A stretch of 64,000 nt of DNA from Escherichia phage Av-05. The stretch is from the sequence record KM190144. One strand, given 5' to 3'. The notes beneath the pieces were generated by a model. The model had not been told where the DNA came from and did not search any database. It saw only the letters and a program-made list of their open reading frames with translations. Position 1 is the stretch's first letter. Every line of letters begins with the position of its first letter. Below, piece by piece: positions 1 to 64,000 of the stretch. Position numbers and translations under genes: made by a program.

Positions 1-2
1 TT

Positions 3-275
3 TTGGAAATAACTTATTTTCATTCCACAATGGATTCAGGAACAAGAAGCTATCAAGCATATTTTGAAGTGACAACCAAAGAACAAGAGGTTGTTAGGAT
101 TGCCTTTATAGGGCAGGATGAGTATTATTATCCAGAAGCTGATGCAGGGACAACAATCCTTTGCGATGATGATGGCTGGATACTTTGGGCTAACAAACTC
201 TATTATCTCATCAATTTCCGTTTGCCTCGTACAGGCGACGCAACTTGGTGGAATAAGTGGGCAACTAATGAATAA
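3..275 (+). CDS. structural protein, C-terminal fragment (gene begins upstream of window)
   Basis: ORF open to window edge; followed by terminator; sits upstream of baseplate/tail-fibre genes. Confidence 0.35.
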   Translation: MEITYFHSTMDSGTRSYQAYFEVTTKEQEVVRIAFIGQDEYYYPEADAGTTILCDDDGWILWANKLYYLINFRLPRTGDATWWNKWATNE

Positions 276-278
276 TGG

Positions 279-306
279 AAAGGGGCATAAGCCCCTTTAT
301 TTGTGT
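279..306 (+). terminator. rho-independent terminator
   Basis: hairpin AGGGGC-ataa-GCCCCT at 281-296 followed by T-rich run. Confidence 0.55.
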
Positions 307-380
307 TTACTATTTATAATTAAGACATATTGTGGTAAAATAACCACATCTTATAATAATTTACAAGAGGAGGCATAATC

Positions 381-695
381 GTGGCTGCTCAATTTGGATT
401 AAATGACTACGGTTTTTCAATTCCGTCCCTTGATGACTTGATAACAGATACCAAGCAATCCCTTATTAGAGCTTTTGGTGAAAACTTTAACACCCAAACT
501 AACTCCGTTGTTGATAAGATCACTACTATTTTCAACGAAAGGGAATATCAATTAATTCTTTTGGCTGCATCTATTTATGCAGCACAAACGTTAGCAGGGG
601 CAGAAGGTATATATCTTGACGAGATTCTTGGTCGTCGTGGGATATTCCGTAGAGGAAAAACCAAAGGGTCCGGTACTGGTTCAAATGGTAATTAA
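381..695 (+). CDS. baseplate wedge-like protein, N-terminal segment (possibly one frameshifted gene with 616-1875)
   Basis: GTG start at 381 preceded by AGAGGAGG; ORF ends 80 nt inside the next ORF, which is in the +1 frame; A-run GAAAAACC at about 654-661. Confidence 0.4.
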   Translation: MAAQFGLNDYGFSIPSLDDLITDTKQSLIRAFGENFNTQTNSVVDKITTIFNEREYQLILLAASIYAAQTLAGAEGIYLDEILGRRGIFRRGKTKGSGTGSNGN

Positions 696-1875
696 TAACA
701 CAGTGCCGTATAATATGATTTATGATGCCGCAACATACAGTATTGACGGTGGGAATTTTGTGTTAACAGAAGATACTGCCGTTGCTGGTAATATCATAGC
801 GCAGCAAATAACCAATCAGGATTGGGTTCTTGGTAACTACACCATCCAGATAGTTAACCAGAATGATGGGACAACAAAGACACTGAACCTATCTCTGAAA
901 AACAAAACCCCAAACAGCACCGAATTAAACTCTTTTATGATGGCTATGAAAGAGTTTATAGTCGATAATACAACTTATCTGAACGAAGATAAGATCTTTA
1001 TCGAATCTTCTTCAGGAAGTATGTTTATAGGTTATGATCAAAATAAGAAAATGATTGGTCTTAATGCTCCTGTTGACTTTAGAACATCACCCCTGCTTGG
1101 TCAAAGAACAATAACCATGGATGTTATTGCTGTTGAAGCAGGAGAAATATCTAGAGAAGCAGAGACAGTTACCAACATAAGCCCGACACCAAGTGGTTTT
1201 GTTAGCTTGACGAACAGGGAAGCATTTAGTGATGGTACAGATGTTGAGACGGATACAGAATATAAGCTGAGGGCTTCGAGCACCACATCAACAGGTGCTG
1301 CCGCAACACGGCCAGCTATTGTTTCTGCTGTTTTAAATGTGCCTGGTGTAAGTAAGGTTAAAATTTTCTCCAACAATACTGGTGTGACAAACGAGTACGG
1401 TGTTCCAGCGTATAAGTTTGAGACAGTAGTCTATGGTGGGGCCACAGAAGATATCAGTAAGGCACTTTATAATACCATAGCACTCTCTAATGCTACTTAT
1501 GGTGATGTATTCTATGATGTGACTACAGAAGATGACCAAGTAGAAAGAATTTATCATAGCAAGGCAAAAGTAAGGCAACTTGAAATTCGTGTCAGATATA
1601 AAGGTAAATTACTATCCCTTACAGAACAGAACACGATCAGGGATTCCCTTAAAGCTGTTGTTGATCCTCTTAACATTGCAGATACGTTGTACAATATCCA
1701 ACTTGTTTCTGCTGTGGGGTCATCCATCTCATCAGGTAGATTTACTCAACTTTTAGTAGATGTCAAAAACAAAGGTGAACCAGACAGTACGTATACTAAT
1801 GATGATATTGTTGCTACTATGACAGAAGTTTTCGCTGTAGAGTTAAATGACATAACTTTCCAGCAAGTTCTTTAA
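616..1875 (+). CDS. baseplate wedge-like protein, C-terminal segment
   Basis: 419-codon ORF; track start is TTG; first ATG (682) lacks a Shine-Dalgarno; position in a baseplate-like gene order. Confidence 0.45.
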   Translation: MTRFLVVVGYSVEEKPKGPVLVQMVINNTVPYNMIYDAATYSIDGGNFVLTEDTAVAGNIIAQQITNQDWVLGNYTIQIVNQNDGTTKTLNLSLKNKTPNSTELNSFMMAMKEFIVDNTTYLNEDKIFIESSSGSMFIGYDQNKKMIGLNAPVDFRTSPLLGQRTITMDVIAVEAGEISREAETVTNISPTPSGFVSLTNREAFSDGTDVETDTEYKLRASSTTSTGAAATRPAIVSAVLNVPGVSKVKIFSNNTGVTNEYGVPAYKFETVVYGGATEDISKALYNTIALSNATYGDVFYDVTTEDDQVERIYHSKAKVRQLEIRVRYKGKLLSLTEQNTIRDSLKAVVDPLNIADTLYNIQLVSAVGSSISSGRFTQLLVDVKNKGEPDSTYTNDDIVATMTEVFAVELNDITFQQVL

Positions 1876-1885
1876 GGATGTTATT

Positions 1886-2563
1886 ATGGCAGACTATTTA
1901 AAAGATGTAAATCATATACACACACTGCCAGATTTCGTTGAGGGAGGTATTGACTATCTCCCTGGTGATTTTCTGAAAGAGAAAAAGAATCTTGTAAAAT
2001 TTCTGACAATATACCTTGAAAGATTGAAAGCTGTTGATGAGATGCTTGTAAAGCTATCAGAAGGTAGATTATTAAGGAATGCCGCAGGGCTGAATCTTGA
2101 TGAGATAGGTAATCAGGTTGGTATTGAGAGAAACGGGCTTGATGATGCCACCTATAGGGCAATAATAATGATCTTGGCTGCTGGATCTGCAAGACACGGT
2201 ACAAGACCAGAGTTTATTGAAACATTAAATCAACTGTTTGGTGTTGGAAATTTTACAACTTACAAAGGGGATAATTACCGTTTTGACGTAAACGTATCGA
2301 AAAGCTGTTTCGACTTAGCAGCAGCGATAGATGAGATACTTGACCTATTACCGTTACCAACGCATCTTAGACTAACAGAGTCTGTGGGTTTGGCGTTTGG
2401 TTTTAAGAATGACAAACATGCACTTGGATTCGGATCTGTGACAGAGAAATCAAGAACTGGTGATGGTGGTTTAGCCCATCTAGTTTACGTACCGGATCCA
2501 CCAAGAACATCGGATGACATCCTTATTTATGTTGACAATATTTCTGTAGATGCTACAGAGTAG
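1886..2563 (+). CDS. baseplate/tail protein
   Basis: 225-aa ORF tightly packed between baseplate-like and fibre-like genes. Confidence 0.4.
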   Translation: MADYLKDVNHIHTLPDFVEGGIDYLPGDFLKEKKNLVKFLTIYLERLKAVDEMLVKLSEGRLLRNAAGLNLDEIGNQVGIERNGLDDATYRAIIMILAAGSARHGTRPEFIETLNQLFGVGNFTTYKGDNYRFDVNVSKSCFDLAAAIDEILDLLPLPTHLRLTESVGLAFGFKNDKHALGFGSVTEKSRTGDGGLAHLVYVPDPPRTSDDILIYVDNISVDATE

Positions 2564-2575
2564 AGGAGACCACAT

Positions 2576-4639
2576 ATGACAGAGGCTATTTTCACAGCCA
2601 GAAGAGAAGATGACTCTGTAGCTGTTAGCTTTGACTATGAAACAATATCAAACACAGCTATTGCTGGAAGAGATTATACACCCAAAGTAGGTACGGCAAC
2701 AATTCCTAAAGGGGAAAAGTCTGTACAGATACCTGTGGAGATAAAACAACATCCTAAAAACTCATTACCAAGAGAATTTACCTTGAAAATGAGTAATCCG
2801 TCTTTTGGTGCAAGGCTAGACAGGCTGGCTTCCAGATGTGTTATTAGCACCAAGGAGGATATGTCTGAGTTGGGGTGGGGAACAAAAGAAGAGAAAATGT
2901 TTCTACCTAAATATTGGACAATTGATTCTCAGCCCACAGAAAGTTGCTCTATAATATCTAATGGTAATATACTTACAGCTTATATGACTAATAGAACTGT
3001 AAGCGGTTTAGCAGGGGTTATTTGGAGCACAAAAGATAAGTATGATCATAAAGGGATCTCTTTTCAAGATCACACAGATCTTCGAAACGCTAAACTGTGG
3101 TTCGATATAGAGTTGGGCGACGGAATGCCTGATTTTAATAATGAGAAATTGACCCCGACATTAACTCTTAAACTTTTAGATGGGGCGACCCATTATATCC
3201 CTCTGTACGCTTATGCTGAAAATATCGGTGAGGATTATAAAAGAGCCACAATCAAACTTGATTTTTCAAATTTAAAATCCGGCCCTGATGTGAACGTGCC
3301 AGTGGATACCTCTCAAGTGGATCAGTTTTTCTTTTCTATGATATCTGAGAAGTATGCAGAAGGAGAAGATGTTGTCCCTAAAGAAAATCAGAACCTTATG
3401 TTGAAAATAACTCTTAAAGAGCCTGATACAGGCTATACAATGATGAGAGTTAATAATTTGACAATTCCTGCACATGATGTGCGTATGTGTACATCCTATG
3501 ATGATATGTATAACCTGACACCTGAACGAGTGGTGGACAACTGCTTGAAACTTGGGTACAGGGATATGATAAACCACTATAATGGTATGTCGCATTATTA
3601 CGAGTTCTCTTGGGAAAGCTCCGCATGGAAACTGAACAAAGATGTCCCTGTCAATAATGCAACCCTACAATGGATGAATAACTATTTCGCACTGACACGA
3701 GCAAATGGTTATAAGGTTATCAATTCTATTAGTTTTGAGTTGATGAGTACTGTATGTCCGGCAGAATGGGTGCAGCATGATTGGAATGATGCATTAGCTG
3801 AAACAGGATACACACCACCAAGTTGGGTATTATCTCCTAATATTAATGAGGGTATGCAATATATCCAAAGTGTGATAAATAAAATAGCAGCCACATGCGA
3901 ACAAGCTAACCAGGTTGTTATCATTCAGATAGGGGAGCCTTGGTGGTGGTATAATACTGCTACAAATTTACCTTGTGTGTATGATTATACTACAAAAGCG
4001 CGTTTTAATGAAGAGACTGGATTGTATGCTCAAGACATGGGGACAATTTATGACTTTAAGACCGGAACACCCTATGATGAGTATGTAGATTTTCTAAGAC
4101 AGTGCTTAGGGGAGCGAGTGGTAAAATTCGGTGCTGATCTTAAAAAATCTTATCCTAATGCAAAAATAACACTTTTACCGTTTTTACCATCCATTATTGG
4201 TAATGGTATTATGGAAAAGATAAATTTCCCTAGTGGTAGTTATACACCTGAGAATTTTGATCTCTATTGCTCCGAGTGCTATGACTGGTTACTCCAAGGG
4301 AAAATGGAAAAATCATTCCAAGCCATCACCATTCCGCGAGATGTCTTAAAATTTAAAGAAGATAAGATACATTATCTGGCAGGATTTGTTCCAGACGAAG
4401 GGCTAGCACCATTATACGGATTTGACCCTAATTCTAATTATAGAGAATATCTTTGGAAAATGATTATAGGGAACATTGTCCTTAATGAGTTTAAGTTTCC
4501 AGGTATTTATCAATACATATGGGCGTATCCACAAGTAATGCATGATTCTATAACAGTGCACAACTCTCAATCCGCAGTCTTTCATATGGGGCATACAGCA
4601 TTGAAAGGGTATTTAAAAGATACCCCACCAGAAGTTTAA
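2576..4639 (+). CDS. tail fibre/tailspike-like protein with Calx-beta-like N-terminal segment
   Basis: 687-aa ORF; N-terminal ...GRDYTP...GEKSVQIPVEI... resembles Calx-beta; large Trp/Tyr-rich C-terminal domain. Confidence 0.4.
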   Translation: MTEAIFTARREDDSVAVSFDYETISNTAIAGRDYTPKVGTATIPKGEKSVQIPVEIKQHPKNSLPREFTLKMSNPSFGARLDRLASRCVISTKEDMSELGWGTKEEKMFLPKYWTIDSQPTESCSIISNGNILTAYMTNRTVSGLAGVIWSTKDKYDHKGISFQDHTDLRNAKLWFDIELGDGMPDFNNEKLTPTLTLKLLDGATHYIPLYAYAENIGEDYKRATIKLDFSNLKSGPDVNVPVDTSQVDQFFFSMISEKYAEGEDVVPKENQNLMLKITLKEPDTGYTMMRVNNLTIPAHDVRMCTSYDDMYNLTPERVVDNCLKLGYRDMINHYNGMSHYYEFSWESSAWKLNKDVPVNNATLQWMNNYFALTRANGYKVINSISFELMSTVCPAEWVQHDWNDALAETGYTPPSWVLSPNINEGMQYIQSVINKIAATCEQANQVVIIQIGEPWWWYNTATNLPCVYDYTTKARFNEETGLYAQDMGTIYDFKTGTPYDEYVDFLRQCLGERVVKFGADLKKSYPNAKITLLPFLPSIIGNGIMEKINFPSGSYTPENFDLYCSECYDWLLQGKMEKSFQAITIPRDVLKFKEDKIHYLAGFVPDEGLAPLYGFDPNSNYREYLWKMIIGNIVLNEFKFPGIYQYIWAYPQVMHDSITVHNSQSAVFHMGHTALKGYLKDTPPEV

Positions 4640-4654
4640 GAAGGAGATACTTTT

Positions 4655-5725
4655 ATGGCTATACCAAGTATACCAATCGAGATTTGGGCAGCGGGAGATG
4701 TAATTCTCCCTAATACTCACGGGGAGAACAAAATAAGACCTATTGACGACCTTTGGTTAAAAGGTTGGGATATGGGAGAAAAACCAGCTTGTGAAGAGTT
4801 TAACTATGTTCTTCATATGATGACAAGTTGGATAAAATATGTTACAGGGGATCAAATTCCTGAATTAGATACAAGATTTTTAAGAAGAAGTGAAAATCTG
4901 TCTGATTTAGCGGATAAGGAAACATCCAGAGTCAACCTTGATGTGTGGAGCAGATCAGAGGCCGACAACCGTTACGTGAATGTAACGGGAGATACAATGA
5001 CAGGAGCTTTGTCATTGCCGAGATTGAATTTTCAACCTTCTGAGACAGATACTGCGTATATCACAACTACAAATCCGGCTTCTGACTGGACGTACTGGGA
5101 TTTTGTTCTTGGAGATAATCCAGGAACAGCAGGGACAAACGGTGTAGATTCTATACGTTTCCGATTCTCTCCTTCAGGTAACTCTGGGATGTTCACTATG
5201 ATGGAGCTTAATGCTATTAGCTCCTCAGCGGCTTTGTGTAAAGTAACAGGAAATGTTGTTGCCACAGGCACTGTACAAGGAACAAATGTTAATGGCACAA
5301 ATGCAACATTCACCACAACAAGAACATCCTCTTTGACGGCTACAGGGCAAATTCAAGGTCAAACTGTTGTAGCAACAAGCTCATTAACAACACCATATGC
5401 AAGGGTTAATGGGGAAGCGAATGTAAATTCACTGGTTGTAAATAATAACTCTGCAAGGGTTGCGGGGAGAAATATCGTAAGATCTGTTAATGGTGTAGGT
5501 GCTGACGGGAATGGTAATGTTAACTTACCAACAGGAAGTGTTCAGCAAATAAGACTTGGTAATCGTTTCTCTGCGGGGGTTGTTGAGTCTACGTTTTATC
5601 CTGGACATGTAATGACTGGCTGGGCATTTGGTAATAAAAAGGAATTGAGAGGTGGTACGTATTACACTGCTCCTTTGCAATATCTTGTGAATGGTCAATG
5701 GGTAACAGTAACAAATTTAAACTAA
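4655..5725 (+). CDS. tail fibre protein
   Basis: GDTMTG motif typical of phage tail fibres; Thr/Asn/Gly-rich beta repeats; followed by Tfa-like gene. Confidence 0.55.
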   Translation: MAIPSIPIEIWAAGDVILPNTHGENKIRPIDDLWLKGWDMGEKPACEEFNYVLHMMTSWIKYVTGDQIPELDTRFLRRSENLSDLADKETSRVNLDVWSRSEADNRYVNVTGDTMTGALSLPRLNFQPSETDTAYITTTNPASDWTYWDFVLGDNPGTAGTNGVDSIRFRFSPSGNSGMFTMMELNAISSSAALCKVTGNVVATGTVQGTNVNGTNATFTTTRTSSLTATGQIQGQTVVATSSLTTPYARVNGEANVNSLVVNNNSARVAGRNIVRSVNGVGADGNGNVNLPTGSVQQIRLGNRFSAGVVESTFYPGHVMTGWAFGNKKELRGGTYYTAPLQYLVNGQWVTVTNLN

Positions 5726-5728
5726 GGG

Positions 5729-6280
5729 GTGCATATGTACAAAATCTATGGTAATTTTCAGCCTTACACACCTGAAAGAACAGAGTATAATTCGGCCTTC
5801 ATAGACACAGGGGCAGGTTTCCTTAAAGACAGTGATGGTAGAGATTGGTATGAATTATCAAAAGAACTAGCTGATAACAAAGCGGAAAACCAAAAATTTT
5901 TGCTTCTGACTTCGGATGATATAGTCCTCTGTGTCTCACAAGACCCAACCGCTTATTTTCCTTATGGAATGAAAATAGTAGTTATTGAGAATCTTACTGT
6001 AAACTTAGACCCTAAACTCGGGCATATAAAATTTACAGATGGAGAATTTTTTGATTATAACAAAGAAGCGGTAGAACAAGCTCAATCAATTATAGAAACA
6101 GAAATGATGTGGGCTTCTAATCAAATCTCTACCTTGGAGGATATGATCTCTATGGGATTGGGTACAGAGAGTAGAAAAAAATATCTGGAAAAATTAAAAG
6201 AGTATCGCATAAAACTGTTTTCGTTAGACCCTGAAGAAGATATGAATATTTCTTTACCAGACAGACCTTCTAAAAAATAA
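5729..6280 (+). CDS. tail fibre assembly chaperone (Tfa/gp38-like)
   Basis: 183-aa ORF directly downstream of fibre gene; Tfa-like C-terminus. Confidence 0.5.
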   Translation: MHMYKIYGNFQPYTPERTEYNSAFIDTGAGFLKDSDGRDWYELSKELADNKAENQKFLLLTSDDIVLCVSQDPTAYFPYGMKIVVIENLTVNLDPKLGHIKFTDGEFFDYNKEAVEQAQSIIETEMMWASNQISTLEDMISMGLGTESRKKYLEKLKEYRIKLFSLDPEEDMNISLPDRPSKK

Positions 6281-6291
6281 GGAGACAAGGA

Positions 6292-6606
6292 ATGTCTATT
6301 GACCTATTTGCTATCTTAAAAGCCGTATGGGGTGTATTGACGTTTTTCTTAGTTGGTGTTCTGAAGTTAACATACTCAGACTATAAAAAGACACAGCAAC
6401 GTCTTGATGAACTTGATAGGGACATCATAAGAATTAAGGCAGAGATGGTCACTAAAGAGAAACTTGATGAGATTCTTGATAAAAAACTGAAAGCTGTCCG
6501 CGATGATGTTTCAGATTTTAGAAAAGACTTAAAAGAGGATGTGAGCAGTTTGAGAGTTGATCTTATAGACCAGCTTAAAATTCTTATAGAGAGTCAAATG
6601 AAATGA
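6292..6606 (+). CDS. membrane-anchored coiled-coil protein
   Basis: N-terminal hydrophobic helix then charged heptad-like region. Confidence 0.35.
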   Translation: MSIDLFAILKAVWGVLTFFLVGVLKLTYSDYKKTQQRLDELDRDIIRIKAEMVTKEKLDEILDKKLKAVRDDVSDFRKDLKEDVSSLRVDLIDQLKILIESQMK

Positions 6607-7076
6607 TAAGTTCTGCACTGTACTTTATATGCTTTGCAGTGCTACTTCTTGATAATGACAAAGGGATCCGAGCCATGTCAGTATTTGGCATGGTTCATAT
6701 CGTGGCAGAGAATATACTGTACTGGTGGTTCTGTTCCCATATCTACGCATTTGACTTGTCACTCTACCTAACCTTTTGTTGGTTCTTGGATATATCTCTG
6801 ATTTTCTTTACTGCATGTGCTTTGACAGGATGGAGAAAAAAGCTAATGCTTACACTATCTCTTCCTGTTCTGTTTTGCCAAATTTTAGTTATGCAGTTCC
6901 CATTTATTTTACCAATCGCATTAGGCTTCACGATAAATTCATCATATCCAACATTTATGGAAGTTCTTTTATTATGCGCAGCATACAAAAGCGGCACAAT
7001 AAAAGAATTGCTTGAGACTTCTGTTGTTGTTGGTTTCATAATTATAGCCAGAATTGTTCCTGGAGTAAATTATTGA
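6603..7076 (+). CDS. polytopic membrane protein
   Basis: 157 aa with several hydrophobic segments; start overlaps upstream stop (ATGA). Confidence 0.35.
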   Translation: MISSALYFICFAVLLLDNDKGIRAMSVFGMVHIVAENILYWWFCSHIYAFDLSLYLTFCWFLDISLIFFTACALTGWRKKLMLTLSLPVLFCQILVMQFPFILPIALGFTINSSYPTFMEVLLLCAAYKSGTIKELLETSVVVGFIIIARIVPGVNY

Positions 7077-7091
7077 GGATTCTAATGTATT

Positions 7092-7355
7092 ATGCTAAAA
7101 TCAATATTGAAATTTTTAAAAGACCTTGTCAGATCCCCAGTAAATCCAGAGAAGGCCTCTCACACAAAATTTTGGAGTAATATCGGCTTGGCTGCAATGA
7201 CAGCAGTTTTTTTAGATTGGGGTTTCAAAGGCACATTGACGGAGTGGTATATGTGGGTGTATGCCCCCACAGTGGCTGCTCCACAGTTAATAAGTAAGTT
7301 AATATCTCTACGTTGGGGTGTAGAAGCACAACGTAGGGAAGAATCAGACCAATAA
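7092..7355 (+). CDS. small membrane protein (holin-like?)
   Basis: 87 aa, central hydrophobic segment, charged C-terminus. Confidence 0.3.
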   Translation: MLKSILKFLKDLVRSPVNPEKASHTKFWSNIGLAAMTAVFLDWGFKGTLTEWYMWVYAPTVAAPQLISKLISLRWGVEAQRREESDQ

Positions 7356-7365
7356 GGAGATTCTT

Positions 7366-9120: not shown

Positions 9121-9126
9121 TATAAA

Positions 9127-9151
9127 AGGCCACAGCAGTGGCCTTTGTTTT
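9127..9151 (+). terminator. rho-independent terminator
   Basis: hairpin AGGCCACagcaGTGGCCT then TTGTTTT. Confidence 0.5.
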
Positions 9152-55508: not shown

Positions 55509-55517
55509 GGGACTCTT

Positions 55518-56099
55518 ATGGCTAGTTTAATTTTTACCTATGCCGCTATGAACGCTGGTAAGTCTGCTTCATTACTTACTGCCGCACATAACTATAAAGA
55601 ACGTGGCATGGGTGTATTAGTTCTTAAACCGGCTATTGATACTCGCGATTCAAAAGGTGAAATAGTCTCTCGTATTGGTATTCGTCAGGATGCCAATATA
55701 ATTACAAAAGACATGGATATCTTTGAATTTTATAAATGGGCTGCAGCACAAAAGGATATTCACTGTGTATTTGTTGACGAAGCTCAGTTCTTAACTACTG
55801 AAAAGGTGTATCAACTTAGTCGTATTGTTGACGTATACAATGTGCCGGTAATGGCATACGGACTACGAACAGATTTTAAAGGTAATCTATTTGAAGGTTC
55901 TCAAGCATTAATGGCTATTGCCGATAAGCTTGTTGAACTTAAAGGTGTCTGTCATTGCGGTAAAAAGGCCACAATGGTAGCTAGAGTCACGGAAGACGGA
56001 CTTCCAATTACAGATGGCAGTCAAATTGAAATTGGTGATACCGATAGATACGTGTCATTATGCCGGAAGCATTGGAATGATTTGACAGGGTTGTTATAA
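55518..56099 (+). CDS. tk: thymidine kinase
   Basis: MASLIFTYAAMNAGKS P-loop, VFVDEAQF, C-terminal CHCG...C zinc motif; close to T4 Tk by eye. Confidence 0.9.
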   Translation: MASLIFTYAAMNAGKSASLLTAAHNYKERGMGVLVLKPAIDTRDSKGEIVSRIGIRQDANIITKDMDIFEFYKWAAAQKDIHCVFVDEAQFLTTEKVYQLSRIVDVYNVPVMAYGLRTDFKGNLFEGSQALMAIADKLVELKGVCHCGKKATMVARVTEDGLPITDGSQIEIGDTDRYVSLCRKHWNDLTGLL

Positions 56100-56126
56100 A
56101 TACTAATATCTAACCAAGAGGTATAT

Positions 56127-56339
56127 ATGCAGCAATTAAACGAAAGACAACTTCGTAATCTTACTGTAACCCAATTGGACGAAATCCGAAGAGAATTAGG
56201 ACATTCTATTTCTCATTTAAACGAGGATATTCGTCAAACTGGTTCTAAAGCTGATTATACACGCAAGCGCAAGCTGGAAAAATACCTCGCAGATGTTAAG
56301 GCCGTTCAAAGGCGAAAAATAAATACTGGCCAAAATTAA
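56127..56339 (+). CDS. hypothetical protein
   Basis: 70-codon ORF, basic. Confidence 0.3.
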
Positions 56340-56351
56340 CAGGAGGCCTAT

Positions 56352-56654
56352 ATGGCCTTAAGAGCGATAGCTGTCATGGCGATGCTGGGGTTTTTTGCAG
56401 CAACAACTCCTATTGTTGGCACTGCATATGTTGACCCGTACTTTGATAACTTTATGGAATCAGGGATTAAAAACGTATATACTTTGTTCGAAATTCAAAA
56501 TGTTGAGAATTCTGAAAAATTTTATAAGTATATGGCAAAGCATTACAAAAATAGCCCCTGTGATGATGCATTTGAATGTCATGAACAAGGCATAAAAACT
56601 GCCAGAAAATTTGCTGAGTTCATGAAAATAAAATTAGAGCCTACATCTATCTAA
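56352..56654 (+). CDS. secreted protein
   Basis: signal peptide MALRAIAVMAMLGFFAA. Confidence 0.35.
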   Translation: MALRAIAVMAMLGFFAATTPIVGTAYVDPYFDNFMESGIKNVYTLFEIQNVENSEKFYKYMAKHYKNSPCDDAFECHEQGIKTARKFAEFMKIKLEPTSI

Positions 56655-56660
56655 TTTACT

Positions 56661-56690
56661 AGCCCCTTCCGAAAGGTTGGGGCTTTTTTG
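56661..56690 (+). terminator. rho-independent terminator
   Basis: AGCCCC-ttccgaaaggtt-GGGGCT then TTTTTG. Confidence 0.55.
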
Positions 56691-56699
56691 CATCTATCA

Positions 56700-56728
56700 G
56701 TTTACTTCTCCTCAGGTTGTGTTATAGT
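56700..56728 (+). promoter_or_regulatory. T4-early-type promoter
   Basis: -35 GTTTAC, 17 nt spacer, -10 TATAGT; spacer TTCTCCTC is complementary to the downstream SD GAGGAGAA. Confidence 0.5.
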
Positions 56729-56755
56729 AGACCTTACTTACTAGAGGAGAACGTT

Positions 56756-56935
56756 ATGTCACGTAAAGAAAAAATTTCTAAGTTAATGTTTTTGATTGAA
56801 GAGTACGCTAACGCTGTATCCGATTGGGAAAATGCCCATGGGTGTGAAGACGGTGATATCGATATCAATAAGGCAATGAAAAAGATGGCTGATACGCACA
56901 CTGAATTGCAAATGTATGTTAACGAGATTATGTGA
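56756..56935 (+). CDS. hypothetical protein
   Basis: ATG at 56756 with GAGGAG SD. Confidence 0.35.
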   Translation: MSRKEKISKLMFLIEEYANAVSDWENAHGCEDGDIDINKAMKKMADTHTELQMYVNEIM

Positions 56936-56942
56936 GGATATT

Positions 56943-57149
56943 ATGCTTTACGATTATACTGGAAAATCTGAAGACGGTGTACTTGAACTTTTACCTGAAA
57001 GCGCTGAAGATGATGATATGGTGGCGATGTTTTGTAAAAATGGTCCTGGGGATAAGGGATGGATTTATCTTCGACAAGAAAATGACTTAATTGTTTTGGA
57101 CCCTAAACAAGTTGAAGAACTTTATCAACATTTAAAACACAATCGGTAG
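56943..57149 (+). CDS. hypothetical protein
   Basis: ATG at 56943 with GAGGAT SD, overlaps the upstream stop. Confidence 0.3.
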   Translation: MLYDYTGKSEDGVLELLPESAEDDDMVAMFCKNGPGDKGWIYLRQENDLIVLDPKQVEELYQHLKHNR

Positions 57150-57180
57150 TTTACATCTTGGTAGGACTAAAAAAAAAATT

Positions 57181-57690
57181 TTAAGATGCTTCTAATTCAG
57201 ATTTAAGATCAGCAATCATCTTTTCAAAGGATTTGTTCTTAGTCAGTGTAACACCTTTAGAAAGTGCAAACTCAACTAATCTATCTTTACTACCTTTTTT
57301 ATCAGCTTCATCATTCAGAGACATTGCTTCCTCTAAAATCAGATCAATAGATAGATTTTCTTTGTCATCCTTTTTATCTTGCACTTCTACAATCTTGGCA
57401 TCAACTGCCTTACCCATACTATTTGGATTAGGAATATCTTTGTTAAAGAATACAATATAAGAACCCATACGAATAGTAGAGTGCTGTGCATCAACATCAA
57501 GACCAGACATCTCAGCAAGAGCAGTGAAAAACTCAACAGTGTTTCTGAATGCCTTGTGTTGTGTCCCCACACATAAACCATTCAAAGGCAGTCTTGCAGA
57601 TACCGCTGCATTCAATTGTGGTGCATATGCTCCGAAAAACTTAAACAGTTCCACTTTATTAGGGAAAATACGATAATTTTGATTTGCCAT
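57181..57690 (-). CDS. hypothetical protein (head-module associated?)
   Basis: 169-codon ORF downstream of the major capsid gene. Confidence 0.35.
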   Translation of the reverse strand: MANQNYRIFPNKVELFKFFGAYAPQLNAAVSARLPLNGLCVGTQHKAFRNTVEFFTALAEMSGLDVDAQHSTIRMGSYIVFFNKDIPNPNSMGKAVDAKIVEVQDKKDDKENLSIDLILEEAMSLNDEADKKGSKDRLVEFALSKGVTLTKNKSFEKMIADLKSELEAS

Positions 57691-57764
57691 AAAATCTCCT
57701 TTTATTCCTTAGTAAAAACCACTTGACAACACAGGATAAGTGGCTATTATTAAGGTCAGAATGT

Positions 57765-57794
57765 GAAAAAGGGGAGGTGATAATTCACCTCCCC
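57765..57794 (-). terminator. rho-independent terminator after major capsid gene
   Basis: 10-bp stem GGGGAGGTGA/TCACCTCCCC, followed on the minus strand by a U-run. Confidence 0.55.
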
Positions 57795-57820
57795 TCATTA
57801 GAGGTAGCATTTAAGCTATC

Positions 57821-58834
57821 TTATGCGAAAGTACCAGTAGAACGTACAACCAGTTCAGGACGGGTGTTAACCGTCAGGAAGGAAGTTTCAGATTCAACTT
57901 TCTCTTCACGCAGATATGCAGAAGATTTGTACCACAGATACAGTTCTTCAGCTACAGTGTTTGCTTCACGAACATCATCTGCCGGAGCATAATGGATCTG
58001 GAACATATCATCAATACCTTGCGGCAGGATGTATGCTTCACCATCTGGGATATATCCAGAGATGTCTTCAATGTAGGTTACGTTCTTATGAACAAACATA
58101 CGGTTGTTGGCATTCTCAGAACCCATACCCAGACGACGACGCAGCGGTTCTTGGGTAGAAGAGTAATACTGGTAAGCGTTCATGATCAGCGGGTGGGCGA
58201 TCAGAGCAGAGAACCATTTACGAGAAGCCAGAACAATGATATTATAGTTATTGCCGTTATCACCTGCATTGTCGATGATGTATGCACGAGCGTCTTTCTC
58301 AATCAGATCAGACGGGTCAACTGCAACATCTGTGAAGTTGATATTGGCAGTATGCTGGGTAACTCCCCACTCAGTAAAGTAGTTGTACTGTGCGGTCGGA
58401 TCTTGTGGAGACCATGATTTACCCATGATTGCCTGAACCATTGCTTTTTCTTTCAGTTGTTCATGAGAAACGCGAATACGCTTAACTACGCGAGCAACTA
58501 CGTCTTCAACAGTTCTCGGAGCGTCCGTAGTGAAGTATTTACGGAAGTTCTGAACATCTGCCGCAGTGATCTGACGATCCAGAGGGAAGAACGGAATGTT
58601 GAAGTTCTTGATTTGGGCTTTTTCACTACCCACATAGTTACGTTCTCCACCACGACGACGTGCAGGAATATCCGCAACAATTTCGTCAACACGCTCAACA
58701 CGAGCAATTGTGGTTTCACCATGGTAGGCGGTGAACAGATCCATGTTGGTAATCAGGCGATACTGACGTGGAACAAGTTCCAGTGCTGCGCCAAGGTTTA
58801 CGATTTGAAAGTCGTTAGTCTGTACTGCTGCCAT
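57821..58834 (-). CDS. major capsid protein (lambda gpE-like)
   Basis: 337 aa; several segments parallel lambda gpE; highly expressed-type codon usage. Confidence 0.6.
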   Translation of the reverse strand: MAAVQTNDFQIVNLGAALELVPRQYRLITNMDLFTAYHGETTIARVERVDEIVADIPARRRGGERNYVGSEKAQIKNFNIPFFPLDRQITAADVQNFRKYFTTDAPRTVEDVVARVVKRIRVSHEQLKEKAMVQAIMGKSWSPQDPTAQYNYFTEWGVTQHTANINFTDVAVDPSDLIEKDARAYIIDNAGDNGNNYNIIVLASRKWFSALIAHPLIMNAYQYYSSTQEPLRRRLGMGSENANNRMFVHKNVTYIEDISGYIPDGEAYILPQGIDDMFQIHYAPADDVREANTVAEELYLWYKSSAYLREEKVESETSFLTVNTRPELVVRSTGTFA

Positions 58835-58857
58835 TTATAAATTCTCCTTGATGCAAA

Positions 58858-59280
58858 TTAGCTGATAGCCGTTACTTTAATATCTTCAGAACCATCGAAA
58901 TATTTATCGGTGATTTTCAGACCTCTTGCCTCAAGAGCTTTAATAGCAGTCTCGTCAATTCCTGTGGAACCATCAGAGAACACAATCTTGGACTTATTCA
59001 GAGTAAGGCCACGAACAGCAACAACAAAATTATATTTGGTTCCTACTTTGAACGGGGTAACAGGTTCGTATGCAGGTACAAGGTCATGGTCAACCAGAAC
59101 ACCATAAGCCTGAGCAGCATCACCAGATGCAGCTAAAGTACCGTCTTCTTTAACGATCATACCTGCTTTCATACCTGCTGCGTACTGAATCTCCATTTCC
59201 TTGAAGCTATAGCCTTGGTCAGAAGAATCAACTTTACCCAGTACAATGTCAGAGTAGAAACCTTGAATTGGATTAGCCAT
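58858..59280 (-). CDS. head decoration protein (gpD-like)
   Basis: 140 aa between scaffold and capsid genes. Confidence 0.45.
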   Translation of the reverse strand: MANPIQGFYSDIVLGKVDSSDQGYSFKEMEIQYAAGMKAGMIVKEDGTLAASGDAAQAYGVLVDHDLVPAYEPVTPFKVGTKYNFVVAVRGLTLNKSKIVFSDGSTGIDETAIKALEARGLKITDKYFDGSEDIKVTAIS

Positions 59281-59298
59281 TTATTTAATCTCCTCGAA

Positions 59299-60300
59299 TT
59301 ACGCTTTCATTGCAGCCGCTTCGCGTGCACGGGCGCGAGCTTTTTCTACGTTGGCTTTCAGAATATCTTCAGCAGACTTATTAATGTCGTCTGTAGTAGC
59401 TTCAGCACCGGAACCATGTTCAGCGGTAGCAAATTCTTTTTTCACAGTCTTAACTTCTTCTTCAAGTTCCTTAATACGAGCCTGTGCTTTTTCCAGAATA
59501 GCCACCACAGGAGCATTAGCTTTCTCGATAATAAAGTTAGCCAGTGCTTCATGATCAGAGTCAGCAGCGAAAGTGAAAGTTTTTGCTTTATTCAGAGCTT
59601 CTTTCTTTTCCACTTCAACGGCAGCTTTGATAATTTCATCAGCTTTAGCAGCTTTGGCTTCAGCTTCTTCTAATTTTTTAACCAGATCCAGATATTCCTG
59701 AGATTTGGTCACATCAACATTATTAGACACTGAGGTCTCCTCTTTTTTCTTGGATTTATCAACTACAGGTTTTGAACCTGCTTCTTTGACGACCCCAGTC
59801 ACCTGGAGATCTTTATCATCACCCTCTACGAAAGTGACTCCTAATTCTGCAACACCTTTTTCAAACAATTGTTGTAATTTTAGCAACTCATATTGTTTAG
59901 CGAGATCTAATTCTTTACCTTCGTGAGCAGCTTTAGCAATTGTTATTGCTTGCACGCGTTCTTCAAGAAATTCTTGATGTTGTGCATTCCATGCCACAAT
60001 AAATTCATCATCAGGGTTTTGCGCCGCATCGTATTCAAGTTCAGTTTCAAAACCAAGAAGTTTTGCCAGCAGTTCTGCATCATCATGCCACATGTAGAAG
60101 AATCTACGCAGAAATTCTTCAAAGCTCATTGTAACAGTTACTTGCTGGAGGGCTTTGATAACGTCTTTAGTAAGCTGCTCAGGTTTAAGATCAGACTTCA
60201 TAAGAAGTGATACTGGTCTTAAATTAGCAGAATACCCTTGAAGCTCATGACACAGTGCAATACCCTTCTCCTTAATGGCTTTGGCCTTTACAATTGTCAT
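59299..60300 (-). CDS. scaffolding protein
   Basis: 333 aa, Ala/Glu/Lys-rich coiled coil; between protease and decoration genes. Confidence 0.5.
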   Translation of the reverse strand: MTIVKAKAIKEKGIALCHELQGYSANLRPVSLLMKSDLKPEQLTKDVIKALQQVTVTMSFEEFLRRFFYMWHDDAELLAKLLGFETELEYDAAQNPDDEFIVAWNAQHQEFLEERVQAITIAKAAHEGKELDLAKQYELLKLQQLFEKGVAELGVTFVEGDDKDLQVTGVVKEAGSKPVVDKSKKKEETSVSNNVDVTKSQEYLDLVKKLEEAEAKAAKADEIIKAAVEVEKKEALNKAKTFTFAADSDHEALANFIIEKANAPVVAILEKAQARIKELEEEVKTVKKEFATAEHGSGAEATTDDINKSAEDILKANVEKARARAREAAAMKA

Positions 60301-60986
60301 TCGTCCTCTTCCTCTGTTTCATCTAGATAACCCAGACATTCGATACCGAAATCAACATCTGTTATTTCTCCTGTTGCTGTGTCCACACGCCCAGAGCACT
60401 GGATGCTTAAACCACCAACAACATTTGCTTTTTTCAAATCCCACAAAGCAGGATCATTATACTTAACCTTGGCTACCCATGTTCCTGCTTTAATTATCTG
60501 TTCCGTCCCAATGACCACAACATCCAGTTCTTCTTGAATCCAAGTTTTTTCAATAGTGAATGCATCAGTCTCGCTAAGATGGAATAAATTTTCTTTCACC
60601 AAACCAGCAGCGAGTGCCTTATCGTAGGATTCTTTTGCCTTTACTATCGTTTCAGGAGACATCCACTCTCCATGGGCATCCTTAGTGTTTGGCTCATAAA
60701 TAACCTCATAAGAGATCATTTGTTCCGCATCTTTTTGGATATTAACTACAGATGTTTCTTTATTAAGACTCTTTTTAAGATTTAGAGATAAAACTCTCTC
60801 AGAAGCCTTTTCTACAGAAATTTCTGGAGAATGGCCTGAGGCAATCAGGCCATTAGCGATATTCAGTATCTTGCTCTTTTGAACAAGAGACAGATCAGAT
60901 ACTGATGAAGGAAGGTCTTTAATGCTTTTAAATTTCATTATTTCCCCATTAACAGTTATTTTAACATCGTTCTTTTTCTTTTGCAA
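60297..60986 (-). CDS. prohead protease
   Basis: 229 aa between portal and scaffold; acidic C-terminus. Confidence 0.45.
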   Translation of the reverse strand: MQKKKNDVKITVNGEIMKFKSIKDLPSSVSDLSLVQKSKILNIANGLIASGHSPEISVEKASERVLSLNLKKSLNKETSVVNIQKDAEQMISYEVIYEPNTKDAHGEWMSPETIVKAKESYDKALAAGLVKENLFHLSETDAFTIEKTWIQEELDVVVIGTEQIIKAGTWVAKVKYNDPALWDLKKANVVGGLSIQCSGRVDTATGEITDVDFGIECLGYLDETEEEDE

Positions 60987-61007
60987 GTTATTTCAGAAGG
61001 TTGAGTG

Positions 61008-62549
61008 TTAATTCTCTAAATTAGAAACAGAATTATCCCTGACAGTAGATATTTTTGATGTTCCGTTACCTGTTGATCCTGGTGTCATACCATCTCCAGA
61101 ACGGCTTACATCCTGACCAAGAATTTGCAACAATTCATCAAGCTCCATATCTTCAGGGATTTCTTCGTCAAAGCCACCAACCTCAAGAATTTTATTAATA
61201 ACTGTAGGTGTTTTAGGCAAATACCCAACAGCACCAATACGCTGAACAAATTTAGAGAAGCCTTCCATATCGACTTCTTGAATAAGTCCAGGTTTCAGTC
61301 TTGGCATATCTTCGTCAGACAATCTTATATCGTTCAAAGCAAGAAGTTGAGGTATTAAGTTCTTATTGAACGCCTCAACAATAATATCAATATCTCTCTG
61401 GACAAAATGACCATGAATAGTTTGTTTTGATTCTGAAAGATTATAAGATCCTTGCCCATCGTTACCTAAGTTAATAAACCCCGCACCAAAACGATCAAGA
61501 ATAGCCTTCTTGCGAGAATTAACAAGCTCTTGAGTGCTGTATTGTTTACCTGCCCCATCTATCCCTTTGAGGGACATTTCATATTGTTTGCCACCTTGGT
61601 TATTGAGATCAGATGGTAAAATAAAGTAGGCTTGTTCTCCAGCATGTGCGTTAGCAGCATCTGCCATTAATCCTTGCACCATAGCAGCTTCTGGTGATGT
61701 TGGATCTATTGCTGCTTTATTAAGGATTTGGGAAGGTATTTTAAGTTCTATGATACCACCAAGGTCTTTAGATGCCCCAATAGTCTCCAAATTTTCTATA
61801 AGGATCTTCTCTCGGAATGCCCTATAACAACCCACTAATGGTGATACCCCAGCCGGGTTTGATTCTGTGCCTCCCAAACTCATTATCATTAACTTATTAA
61901 CTGGAATAAAAACATCATCACCATTAGTTAATTTACGGATAATGCTTAAAGTGTCACCTAGCATTCCGTTTTGTAAATTAGAGAAAGCCAAACTGCTTTG
62001 GTTAATGCCCTTCAGCGTCTTGCCATCGGCATCAAATACCCAAGGCTTTGATCTAGAAAGGCTGCACTGTGGCCTGAATGCAATTTTATCAATCGTAATA
62101 TACCCAGCATACCTTGAAGTCTCTGACTCAGTACGATAAACTTTTTCAAATATCGAAAACCCATACTCATTGAACGTTGCTGCGCTTCGGGCTATATCAC
62201 GCAGAGTTTGTTGGTTAGCAAGATTCTTCAGCGCATACTCCACAAACTCAGCAGCTTTCTTAGATTTTCTGCTACCTCTGTTGTACAAGATTTTAAAATC
62301 ATTGAATGCTTTGGTCACAAAGACATACTTTGTATCAAGGGCTGTGGAAACTGTATGGTCTTGCTTCATGGCTTCAACAGTGGCGATGAAATTAGGCCAT
62401 CTCAACTCCTTAACTTTCATAATCTCTGATTCAGCCCTAAGTTGAGAAAGAGCACCAGAGCCTAACTCTCCGGTGCGAAGACGACTAACAGCAAGTCTCT
62501 CATTACCTGCTTTAGAAATCTCTTCTTGTTGTGCAAATCTTGTTGACAC
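61008..62549 (-). CDS. portal protein
   Basis: 513 aa immediately downstream of terminase fragment. Confidence 0.55.
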   Translation of the reverse strand: MSTRFAQQEEISKAGNERLAVSRLRTGELGSGALSQLRAESEIMKVKELRWPNFIATVEAMKQDHTVSTALDTKYVFVTKAFNDFKILYNRGSRKSKKAAEFVEYALKNLANQQTLRDIARSAATFNEYGFSIFEKVYRTESETSRYAGYITIDKIAFRPQCSLSRSKPWVFDADGKTLKGINQSSLAFSNLQNGMLGDTLSIIRKLTNGDDVFIPVNKLMIMSLGGTESNPAGVSPLVGCYRAFREKILIENLETIGASKDLGGIIELKIPSQILNKAAIDPTSPEAAMVQGLMADAANAHAGEQAYFILPSDLNNQGGKQYEMSLKGIDGAGKQYSTQELVNSRKKAILDRFGAGFINLGNDGQGSYNLSESKQTIHGHFVQRDIDIIVEAFNKNLIPQLLALNDIRLSDEDMPRLKPGLIQEVDMEGFSKFVQRIGAVGYLPKTPTVINKILEVGGFDEEIPEDMELDELLQILGQDVSRSGDGMTPGSTGNGTSKISTVRDNSVSNLEN

Positions 62550-62564
62550 GAATTATCCCCTCTG

Positions 62565-63350
62565 TTATATTCTTTTATACAAGGTAGGAGCTACAATTTT
62601 TGGAATAACAACAGGTTTGACTATTTCTTCTTTTTCAAGATAATTTATCCCAGAAGAAATGGCGTCGACCCAATCGTCTTTTCTTGTCGTCGTACTCCTT
62701 TCCCCATTGAACTTTTCAAGCTCTGTCATAAGGGCTTCATAAGTTTTAGGATCAAAACTATCACGAACTATTCTCACCATACCTGCTTGAGCAAGTTTTG
62801 CAAACGGTGTGAATCGTGTTAATTTTGATTTATTGCTTGGTGTAGGATCTTTTTCTACTGTAAACCCTTCCGCTATTAGTTCACGGGAGCTTGTTAAAAA
62901 TTCACTTATTCCTGCTTGTCCTGGGTCAACACTGAAAATTATGGTGACATCATCACCATCAAAATAAGCCTGTTTCTTAATGATAACATCACGTTCCCCA
63001 GCTTTTTTACAGAATCTTCCCTGCGTTTGAGTCGAATATCTACCATCATCAAAAAATTCAGGACAATAATCACCAGACAAGTAGTAAAAACCATCATTGT
63101 CTTTACTTACCTTAACAGATGCTGTAAAGTCAGGATATCTGTTTCCAGATGTTCTTTCTGTACCTGCTTTATCATACGGACGAACAGATACAACACCGAG
63201 AGGTAAGCAGGGAACCTCTTTTAAATAAGATCTCTGGAAATAGTTTGCCCCTTCAGGTCTTGCATTCCAGTTCCCATGCAACAACTGGGCTTTTTCTACC
63301 TCTGGAAGACCTTCAAGGAATGCTAGATAATCTGGGTTATTCTCCAGCAT
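62565..63350 (-). CDS. terminase large subunit, nuclease-domain portion (N-terminal ATPase portion not contiguous)
   Basis: RNase H-like motifs incl. ...RKDDWVDAISSG...; no Walker A/B; reading frame open only to 63374. Confidence 0.55.
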   Translation of the reverse strand: MLENNPDYLAFLEGLPEVEKAQLLHGNWNARPEGANYFQRSYLKEVPCLPLGVVSVRPYDKAGTERTSGNRYPDFTASVKVSKDNDGFYYLSGDYCPEFFDDGRYSTQTQGRFCKKAGERDVIIKKQAYFDGDDVTIIFSVDPGQAGISEFLTSSRELIAEGFTVEKDPTPSNKSKLTRFTPFAKLAQAGMVRIVRDSFDPKTYEALMTELEKFNGERSTTTRKDDWVDAISSGINYLEKEEIVKPVVIPKIVAPTLYKRI

Positions 63351-63398
63351 GGGAGGATTATCGAATCCTTGTATTCAAGGTTGGACGCAACGCCAACC

Positions 63399-63450
63399 CC
63401 CGCACCGCTACGTGCTGCTGCATGTCACCAGCAGCACGTAGTGGTGCGGG
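63399..63450. repeat. 22-bp palindrome with 8-nt loop (one G-T pair)
   Basis: CCCGCACCGCTACGTGCTGCTG / CAGCAGCACGTAGTGGTGCGGG; each arm continues into sequence resembling the 3' end of pol intron 2. Confidence 0.8.
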
Positions 63451-63864
63451 ATAAGAGTAGCGATCTTATCTGAACAAAAAACGACACAATTCACATGGTC
63501 ACAGATAGATTATCTGATATCTCGTCTACGTTCAAACTCTAAATATCCGAGCAGGATGGTTATTTCTTGTAACCCTGATCCAGATCATAAGATCAAGGAG
63601 TTGATTTCTTGGTATTTAGATGATGAGGGATATCCTATACCTGAACGCGATGGGGTGATTAGATGGTTTATAAGACGTGACGGGGAGTTTATCTGGGGTG
63701 AATCAGAGCAAGAATTAATTGAAAAGTATTGGGATGGCAAGGATGAGAAAAGAAAGCCTAAACCACTTTCATTTTCCTTCATTTCCGCAACCATTAAAAG
63801 AATAGTGGCTTCATGCAGTAATGCATGTCGAATAACTTCGTTAATTGCTGGAAACTCTCAATAA
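63442..63864 (+). other. open frame on opposite strand with possible terminase ATPase motif-III-like segment
   Basis: frame open 63442-63864; ...SRMVISCNPDPDH... loosely resembles terminase ATPase motif III; ends with TAA directly before intron-like core. Confidence 0.3.
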
Positions 63865-64000
63865 GAGACAATCAGCAGCGAAGCGTCTATTGACGAACGT
63901 TCAACGACTATCCCGTAAGGGAGTAGAGCGCAAGCTAATGGCGTTCGAAAAGCGAAGCACCCATTATGTGTGGGTGGTGATATAGTCTACTCTGCATGGT
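63865..64000 (+). mobile_element. group I intron-like core on + strand, truncated by window end
   Basis: Q-like caatcagcagcg, R-like cgttcaacgactatcc, S-like gatatagtctac in plus orientation, near-identical to pol intron elements. Confidence 0.5.

Follow-up and report, generated by a model that had tools for sequence, protein, structure and literature searches.

A repeat signature at the ends of its pieces marks the Escherichia phage Av-05 sequence as a very probable artefactual chimera of two unrelated coliphage genomes

Two Sources of DNA in the Window

The window analyzed here is a stretch of 64,000 nucleotides (nt) of Escherichia phage Av-05 (sequence record KM190144), in which T-even early genes are found next to replication and head genes of other kinds, so that a previous sequence-only reading had proposed either a truly mosaic phage lineage or a chimeric contig. 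The source of each part was assigned by megablast against around 50,700 phage records and mapped exactly by local BLAST. In addition, every open reading frame (ORF) was searched by tblastn against three relatives: vB_EcoM_TH18 (ON075799; TH18 hereafter), a Vequintavirinae genome of 133.9 kb with sister records 18-1-2, 19-1-2 and 24-2-1; the Salmonella phage PVP-SE1 (NC_016071; Seunavirus, Vequintavirinae); and phiC120 (NC_055718; Mosigvirus, Tevenvirinae).

The DNA of the window comes from two sources. Positions 1-45,885 match TH18 from 43,361 down to 74 (reverse, 90-97% nt identity), positions 57,169-63,434 match TH18 58,378 to 64,645 (forward, 97.1%), and the final part matches it again in reverse (63,484-63,879 with TH18 65,869 to 65,472, 95.7%; 63,899-64,000 with TH18 64,738 to 64,637, 98.0%). 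Between them lie 45,882-46,239, matching the T-even phage phiE142 (99.7%), and 46,206-57,169, matching phiC120 at 99.98% (2 differences in 10,964 nt), both in the same orientation as the matched record. The window is accordingly described below as piece A, the T-even piece (45,882-57,168), piece B (57,169-63,429) and piece C (from 63,430), where A, B and C form the backbone.

The ORFs of the two sources are never mixed along this map. Backbone ORFs match TH18, mostly at more than 90% amino acid (aa) identity, and most of them also match PVP-SE1 at 37-91%, whereas the ORFs at 46,253-57,149 match phiC120 only, nearly all at 99-100% aa and one at 89%. Outside 45.9-57.2 kb, only two ORFs, both distant paralogues, have a match in the phiC120 stretch used. 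Tetranucleotide composition gave the same division, with correlations of 0.16-0.45 between the T-even piece and the backbone segments, 0.71-0.90 among the backbone segments themselves, and 0.72 between the T-even piece and an unrelated 50 kb of phiC120.

Pieces A, B and C belong to the Vequintavirinae both by nt identity to TH18, a classified member, and by the gene content that they have in common with PVP-SE1, and the T-even piece belongs to Mosigvirus by its near-identity to Mosigvirus c120 over those 10,964 nt. The T4 core genes (gp23 capsid, gp20 portal, gp43 polymerase and others) do not characterize the window as a whole, and its capsid, portal and polymerase belong to families other than those of T4. 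The order expected in Vequintavirinae, with an early block followed by tail, head and terminase genes on one strand, holds within each piece but not across the window, a failure that we attribute to misjoining and not to the phage. The sequence-only reading had stated that a mosaic phage would be contradicted by best hits of all blocks falling in one known phage genus with conserved synteny, and this is largely the case: all the blocks outside 45.9-57.2 kb fall in the Vequintavirinae with the gene order of PVP-SE1, and 45.9-57.2 kb falls in one T-even genus.

The T-even Piece

The T-even piece (45,882-57,168, + strand) is an 11.3-kb fragment of Mosigvirus-type early DNA that includes genes of the vs region. 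An internal protein (ip) gene matching phiE142 stands at its left end (45,917-46,192, +), and is followed by genes with PHROG matches to nudE (nudix hydrolase, 47,960-48,418), e (lysozyme, 48,453-48,941), denV (endonuclease V, 49,266-49,691), a RegB-type endoribonuclease (53,104-53,562) and tk (thymidine kinase, 55,518-56,099). Further ip genes, at 48,923, 49,698, 50,022 and 50,630, match internal head protein PHROGs, and a GrcA-like gene (51,985-52,347) takes its name from the annotation of phiC120. All the genes of this type that had been recognized by eye are thus present, but instead of running along the window they are restricted to this single block. The same genes follow each other in the same order in phiC120, from the e.x cluster to the genes downstream of tk, and there the rest of a complete T-even genome flanks the block on either side. 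The ip gene at 45,917-46,192 was not found in the 49-kb phiC120 stretch around the match.

Five genes of the T-even piece open with MK(T/M)(Y/F)xEF(I/L)xE, in agreement with the T4-type capsid-targeting N-terminus proposed for them earlier; we take this start to correspond to the T4 capsid-targeting sequence MKTYQEFIAE. Because these five genes come from another phage, the head genes of which fall outside the fragment, the puzzle of capsid-targeting sequences without a T4 prohead core disappears.

The Vequintavirinae Backbone

Piece A is made of three parts. The first (1-11,105, +) carries genes for the baseplate, the tail and the tail fibres that are homologous to PVP-SE1 gp051 to gp039 and keep the order of that phage, with 94-96% nt identity to TH18 43361 to 32190 (reversed); most of its ORFs are 92-100% identical in aa to those of TH18 and 37-85% to those of PVP-SE1. 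The second (11,159-42,534, -) is the early and replication block according to PHROG and Pfam matches, and is collinear with TH18 3426-32131 and with PVP-SE1 gp219 to gp038. The third (42,645-45,825, +) holds the homologues of PVP-SE1 gp218-gp215 (TH18 peg5-peg1). The positions 11.1 and 42.6 kb, previously suspected as block borders, are ordinary strand switches conserved in TH18 and in PVP-SE1, where they lie at around 24.05 kb and 135.7 kb.

Within the second part, rIIA (33,038-35,038, -) and rIIB (32,053-33,066, -) are 68% and 66% identical in aa to their PVP-SE1 counterparts, and only 34% over no more than 163 residues and 35% over 245 residues to the T-even rIIA and rIIB of phiC120, so the close resemblance to T4 once ascribed to them does not hold. 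They are accompanied by a PIF1-like helicase (30,749-32,053, -), a gp4-like primase-helicase of 666 aa (25,576-27,576, -) that matches phrog_239 primase/helicase (2e-156) and has a DnaB_C domain, and a family A DNA polymerase split into 23,341-25,422, 22,271-22,624 and 21,134-21,436 (-), whose 693-aa protein matches phrog_17 DNA polymerase (1e-76). PHROG and Pfam thus confirm both members of the replisome called T7-like, a family A polymerase and a fused gp4-type primase-helicase, the similarity to T7 being one of type only. At 76-84% identity to PVP-SE1, polymerase and primase-helicase are native to the backbone.

Piece B (57,169-63,429, -) is the head module in inverted orientation. It comprises, all on the - strand, the gp069 homologue (57,181-57,690), the major capsid protein (57,821-58,834; PF03864 Phage_cap_E, the lambda gpE family, 2e-43), the decoration protein (58,858-59,280), another gene (59,299-60,300), an XkdF-like protease (60,297-60,986; Pfam match to the XkdF-like S78_2 family), the portal (61,008-62,549; Portal_Mu, PF06074) and terminase exon 3 (62,565-63,350) with the last bases of its intron. 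The lambda-like head recognized earlier is therefore lambda-like in its gpE-family capsid, but its portal is Mu-like and its protease XkdF-like, not of lambda type, and the module is 66-91% identical in aa to that of PVP-SE1. Piece C (+) consists of a group I intron tail (63,430-63,483), terminase exon 2 (around 63,484-63,784) and a group I intron that runs from 63,785 to 64,000 and beyond. In PVP-SE1, collinear homologues (37-91% aa) were found for nearly all the backbone ORFs of known function, including rIIA/rIIB, PIF1-like helicase, primase-helicase, PolA, baseplate, capsid, portal and TerL. The rII genes, the "T7-like" replisome and the "lambda-like" capsid are the standard rV5/PVP-SE1 (Vequintavirinae) gene set.

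Breaks in Gene Order

The gene order of the window is broken, and the gene order of PVP-SE1 shows the expected arrangement at all three break points. In PVP-SE1 and TH18 the early genes (+) are followed by tail, head and terminase genes (-) as one co-oriented unit, and gp215 is followed by gp214. The early genes of PVP-SE1 run rIIA, rIIB, helicase, primase-helicase and PolA, and its opposite strand carries tail fibres, baseplate, tape measure, sheath, neck, gp068, gp069, major capsid, decoration, protease, portal and TerL. The real discontinuities of the window lie at 45,881/45,882, 57,168/57,169 and 63,429/63,430, plus a join internal to the T-even piece at 46,206-46,239.

At junction 1 (45,881/45,882), T-even DNA starts where the gp218-gp215 unit should enter gp214 and further small early genes; in PVP-SE1 this unit runs into gp214 to gp180 on the same strand. 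At junction 2 (57,168/57,169), T-even DNA stops 20 nt past a gene and backbone DNA, oriented opposite to piece A, takes over at a point 12 nt beyond the stop codon of the gp069 homologue. The two flanks of the T-even piece are around 58 kb apart and oppositely oriented in both TH18 and PVP-SE1. In the window, around 68 kb of backbone is absent between them, and the head module is flipped and severed from its tail-fibre neighbour.

Junction 3 (63,429/63,430) lies within the terminase gene, whose exon 3 (-) and exon 2 (+) point away from each other. Exon 3 (62,565-63,350) matches PVP-SE1 TerL 59,780-58,998 and exon 2 (63,556-63,864 in this comparison) matches 60,035-59,796, which are directly adjacent parts of one PVP-SE1 gene. 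As it is written, the sequence either interrupts the essential terminase gene or holds a head module that duplicates, in inverted orientation, sequence lying past the window. The junction creates a 22-bp palindromic hairpin (-29.3 kcal/mol, z -10.9), whereas the native TH18 site has a stem of only 7 bp. An origin of this junction as a foldback of piece B was considered and rejected: the second arm is a related intron in sense direction, which matches the TH18 intron motif exactly and not the reverse complement of B. The internal join (46,206-46,239, +) sets the ip gene beside the e.x-tk cluster at a second copy of the repeat core described below; in every T-even record listed these two are around 7-9 kb apart.

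Repeats at the Ends of the Pieces

Of the six ends that meet at the three junctions, five lie inside a repeat, of which they retain around 22 nt, and the sixth lies at a homopolymer. The T-even piece begins (45,882-45,903, +) with the last 22 nt of a 39-nt repeat, TAGTTTACATCTTGGTAGGACTATGTTATAGTAGTCCTA, and ends (57,147-57,168, +) with its first 22 nt, a 23rd being ambiguous with the following run of A. The right end of piece A (45,860-45,881) consists of the first 22 nt of a 28-nt hairpin motif, CTCCCATATGTCCCCATTTCAGGGACAT; the right end of piece B (63,408-63,429) consists of the 22 nt that follow the base setting this intron copy apart from the copy of piece C; and the left end of piece C (63,430-63,451) consists of the last 22 nt of a 38-nt motif common to the TerL and nrdD introns of TH18. 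The left end of piece B, from 57,169 onward, is the only homopolymer of at least 9 bases in the window (A10; A11 in TH18, the longest there).

The 39-nt repeat is exact, with one copy upstream of the ip gene in phiE142 and one after the genes downstream of tk in phiC120. It folds into a hairpin (-10.6 kcal/mol, z -5.9) and, judged by its letters, fits the cassettes of early promoter plus stem-loop (PeSL) of T4-type phages, in which a sigma-70-like early promoter and a stem-loop are repeated in hyperplastic regions and whose consensus is a promoter TTTACW-N17-TAYWAT with a stem AGNA-loop-TCNT (PMC4122927, PMC2839356). The left T-even end takes positions 18-39 of the repeat and the right end positions 1-23, so that circularization rebuilds one PeSL. 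Its 24-nt core is found in 6 copies in 119 kb of phiC120 (around 0.12% of that sequence), yet both T-even ends fall within it; it is absent from the 50-kb phiC120 structural block examined and from TH18. The 28-nt motif at the end of piece A forms in TH18 an inverted-repeat pair (72-99 and 79,420-79,447), and these are both ends of the 79.4-kb contig that makes up records 18-1-2, 19-1-2 and 24-2-1. All four records of the TH18 group break off 19-78 nt past junction 1.

A de Bruijn graph assembler keeps k-1 bases of a repeat at the end of a contig. The 22 bases kept would therefore correspond to k = 23, which is the default of SOAPdenovo.

Search for Independent Copies of the Joins

Exact searches with 35- and 36-mers across both T-even junctions found no copy in IMG/VR, the JGI metagenomes or the GTDB genomes, complete E. 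coli genomes gave no match to a 1.2-kb probe that covers junction 1, and no record among the phage collection used for the source map spans either of these junctions. Likewise, a conserved 31-mer beside junction 1 retrieved nothing from IMG/VR, and exact-protein look-ups for two genes flanking the T-even piece retrieved nothing on record.

Origin of the Window

Altogether, these data lead us to conclude with high confidence that the Av-05 window is an artefactual chimera of two unrelated coliphage genomes and not a new phage lineage, which upholds the chimeric contig of the two proposals made by the sequence-only reading and leaves the mosaic lineage unsupported. We infer that an assembler, a scaffolder or manual finishing produced the joins in silico, from contigs that would derive from a de Bruijn graph with k = 23. 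A sample containing a Vequintavirinae phage near TH18 and a T-even phage almost identical to phiC120 would have been sequenced as a mixture, and short-read assembly would have fragmented both genomes at short repeats, namely the 28-nt hairpin motif, the T-even PeSL repeats, the motif common to several group I introns and the long A run. The contigs would then have been strung together with both order and orientation wrong, giving A (reversed), T-even, B (forward) and C (reversed). For the most part, the window is an rV5/PVP-SE1-type coliphage genome of the usual kind, joined at short repeats to the 11.3-kb piece from the T-even phage and to two wrongly oriented pieces of the backbone's own genome.

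Several facts weigh against this conclusion, which is drawn from the assembled sequence. Both T-even junctions are intergenic and every flanking gene is intact; the T-even genes are co-oriented within an early-gene region, as they could be in a real acquisition; and the two T-even ends jointly rebuild one complete PeSL, as an excised PeSL mini-circle would (PMC2839356). Moreover, a 28-nt inverted repeat (22,239/63,805) did not break the pieces and a shared 23-mer (49,706/50,638) was left unbroken, neither of which is explained by a pure k = 23 unitig model, and the counts of 22 nt are ambiguous by 1-4 nt per junction. The k = 23 model is incomplete because assemblers resolve some short repeats using reads.

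Among the alternatives to a misassembly, a real aberrant molecule, or an in-vitro chimera, would have arisen by template or strand switching at hairpins, for instance during multiple displacement amplification, polymerase chain reaction or library preparation from a mixed lysate, and would have been assembled faithfully. All three joins do lie in or beside hairpin-forming sequences, short microhomologies (GGAC, A) are found at them, and two of the three invert orientation, as is typical of displacement-amplification chimeras. However, polymerase switching gives no reason for around 22 nt of repeat at each of five ends, at least three independent switches would be needed within 18 kb of one molecule that must also dominate the assembly, and four other assemblies have contig ends that coincide with junction 1, which points to a property of the assembly graph rather than to one molecular event. 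Having in mind that the 22-nt pattern is not predicted by it, amplification template switching as the cause of all the joins was demoted to a minor rival, and we regard it as very unlikely.

A genuine recombinant appears to us most improbable. In this explanation the joins are real: the virulent Vequintavirinae phage took the 11.3-kb PeSL-bounded cassette in a mixed infection, after its excision from the co-infecting T-even phage, probably by way of a mini-circle. A role as vectors of horizontal transfer has been proposed for mini-circles that form through PeSL (PMC2839356, PMC4122927). The T-even piece spans equivalent places of two 39-nt PeSL copies, with a 6-nt overlap (GGACTA) in the circle that restores an intact PeSL, and the intergenic junctions, the GGAC microhomology at junction 1 and the co-orientation with the upstream early unit would also suit it. 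By contrast, there is no contiguous target for the insertion, given that the flanks lie at TH18 position 74 (reverse) and 58,378 (forward), with PVP-SE1 in agreement, and two further unrelated rearrangements would be required, one of them splitting the essential terminase gene 6 kb away. The 22-nt signature is also found at ends that are not T-even, where a PeSL mechanism cannot explain it; the cassette shows no adaptation to a new genome, with its near-identity to phiC120 and its foreign tetranucleotide signature; and the junctions are absent from every public collection searched. Two general properties of T-even phages count against it as well: their cytosine is modified and they degrade the cytosine-containing DNA of co-infecting phages, and their internal proteins require the T4 prohead core. 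If it were true, it would be the first direct example of PeSL-mediated transfer by which genes leave the T4 superfamily for an unrelated myovirus whose DNA is unmodified, in a cassette that includes injected internal proteins bearing T4 capsid-targeting signals.

An old and stable mosaic lineage, with T-even early genes, a T7-like replisome and a lambda-like head, is hardly credible at all: its one support is that the three kinds of genes are found within one contiguous sequence, but the replisome, rII and head genes are the standard Vequintavirinae set in standard order, the close relative TH18 is without the T-even block, and this block is not an old acquisition because it is virtually identical at the nt level to an existing T-even phage.

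The preferred explanation, a misassembly, has consequences beyond this record. Taken at face value, the sequence would stand in the databases as a striking inter-family hybrid, which would distort phage taxonomy, gene-sharing networks and recombination estimates between virulent phage families. The demonstration of the misjoins removes this false lead, and the retention of k-1 bases of a short repeat at each piece end provides a diagnostic that can be reused.

The analysis also flags other public records with likely assembly problems. The second half of the "complete genome" of TH18 (79.45-133.9 kb) seems inverted with respect to PVP-SE1, its peg210-206 matching gp100-gp106, and the record carries a 119-nt inverted duplication (79742-79860 equals the reverse complement of 133764-133882). 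In phiC120, the baseplate region is found untrimmed at both ends of the record (bases 30-6986 are 100% identical to 169359-176315), a duplication that probably extends to around 17 kb. Because of this duplication the record is around 17 kb longer than other Mosigvirus genomes. Vequintavirinae DNA was considered as the source of the excess in this oversized record (186.6 kb), but none was found in the parts examined and the excess is the duplicated end. A reading of phiE142 as an rV5-like phage was also discarded, since its paper and its taxonomy show a T-even relative.

Accessory Island, Introns and Other Features

Genuine mosaicism in the window is small-scale and confined to the ead/Ea22-like island at 13-18 kb. 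This accessory island (13,200-18,300, -) consists of small genes with ead/Ea22-like, EaA-like and DUF551-like patches, which are 93-95% identical in nt to P1, P7, SJ46 and Stx phages; 1293 of 5426 E. coli genomes have such patches in their prophages or plasmids. Its PHROG matches are all to families of unknown function, and bases 13,200-15,288 have no close match in the phage collection. As the TH18 group, which was assembled independently, has part of the island at this locus too, the island looks like a real small-scale acquisition from temperate phages, and probably represents gene flow from temperate to virulent phages. The real biology of the window is thus modest: a virulent lineage of rV5 type whose ead/Ea22-like genes are almost the same as those of temperate coliphages, and which is also rich in intron and homing-endonuclease polymorphisms.

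At least two group I introns interrupt the terminase gene (62,565-63,434 and 63,430-64,000). The intron at 63,785-64,000 and beyond (+) matches Rfam RF00028 with 71.2 bits against a threshold of 50, the exon upstream of it matches TerL, and its downstream exon lies beyond the window. The split polymerase is interrupted by an HNH endonuclease gene (20,524-21,162), an HNH-like ORF (21,630-22,193) and an ORF of unknown function (22,760-23,245). Matches resembling group I introns were also detected in this region below the 50-bit Rfam threshold, two of 47.5 bits (22,660-22,863) and 41.1 bits (22,023-22,286) and a third, weak one of 24.5 bits (21,486-21,790). A 28-nt exact inverted repeat joins the polymerase region (22,239-22,266) to the TerL intron (63,805-63,832).

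In the first part of piece A, a cassette of tail-fibre and tail-fibre-assembly genes (4655-6280) is swapped, with 84% and 31% aa identity to TH18; its 183-aa protein (5729-6280) is the one that is 31% identical to the TH18 counterpart, and it is 53% identical to PVP-SE1 gp044. The swap is probably a host-range difference within the lineage. A Tk.4-like phosphatase is present twice in the window, in the backbone (37,696-38,304) and in the T-even piece (54,450-54,917), with 34% aa identity between both, and a small neighbour gene is doubled as well (41,007-41,222 and 54,918-55,154, 58% aa). The redundancy of the phosphatase counts in favour of two source genomes; the paralogous genes themselves are old and unrelated to the misjoin.

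A second family of repeats resembling T-even early promoters (GTTTACTTC...TATAG), distinct from the PeSL core at the piece ends, is found within the T-even piece at 49,206-49,256, 53,031-53,081 and 56,684-56,734. A scan of 42.4-57.6 kb for promoter and terminator consensus sequences gave counts no higher than in shuffled sequence.

Comparison with Known Systems

TH18, 94-97% identical in nt over 1-45,885 and 57,169-64,000, has the same backbone genes and island as the window and also shares with it the split PolA and the intron-split terminase, whereas T-even DNA is absent from it and its head module comes after the tail module with both on one strand. Smaller differences concern mobile elements and cassettes. 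The TerL intron of TH18 holds an HNH gene (64743-65429) that the window intron lacks at the same place, the TH18 primase-helicase carries a 0.9-kb insertion (19871-20802) in contrast to the uninterrupted window gene, and several small cassettes differ (5.5-6.3 kb and 13.2-15.3 kb).

PVP-SE1 belongs to another genus, with around 70-78% nt identity in conserved genes. It has no homologues of the small early ORFs in the 13-20 kb accessory region of the window, nor of a few others, and its TerL is uninterrupted, while an insertion containing HNH is found in the same primase-helicase gene as in TH18.

With respect to the published PeSL cassettes (Arbiol et al. 2010, PMC2839356; Comeau et al. 2014, PMC4122927), the repeat of the window fits in its promoter, TTTACA-N17-TATAGT, and in its AGGA...TCCT stem-loop, and like them it recurs in the hyperplastic early region and is absent from the structural genes examined. 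Unlike them, the elements of the window mark the ends of a foreign fragment, and their stem-loop is predicted to overlap the -10 region.

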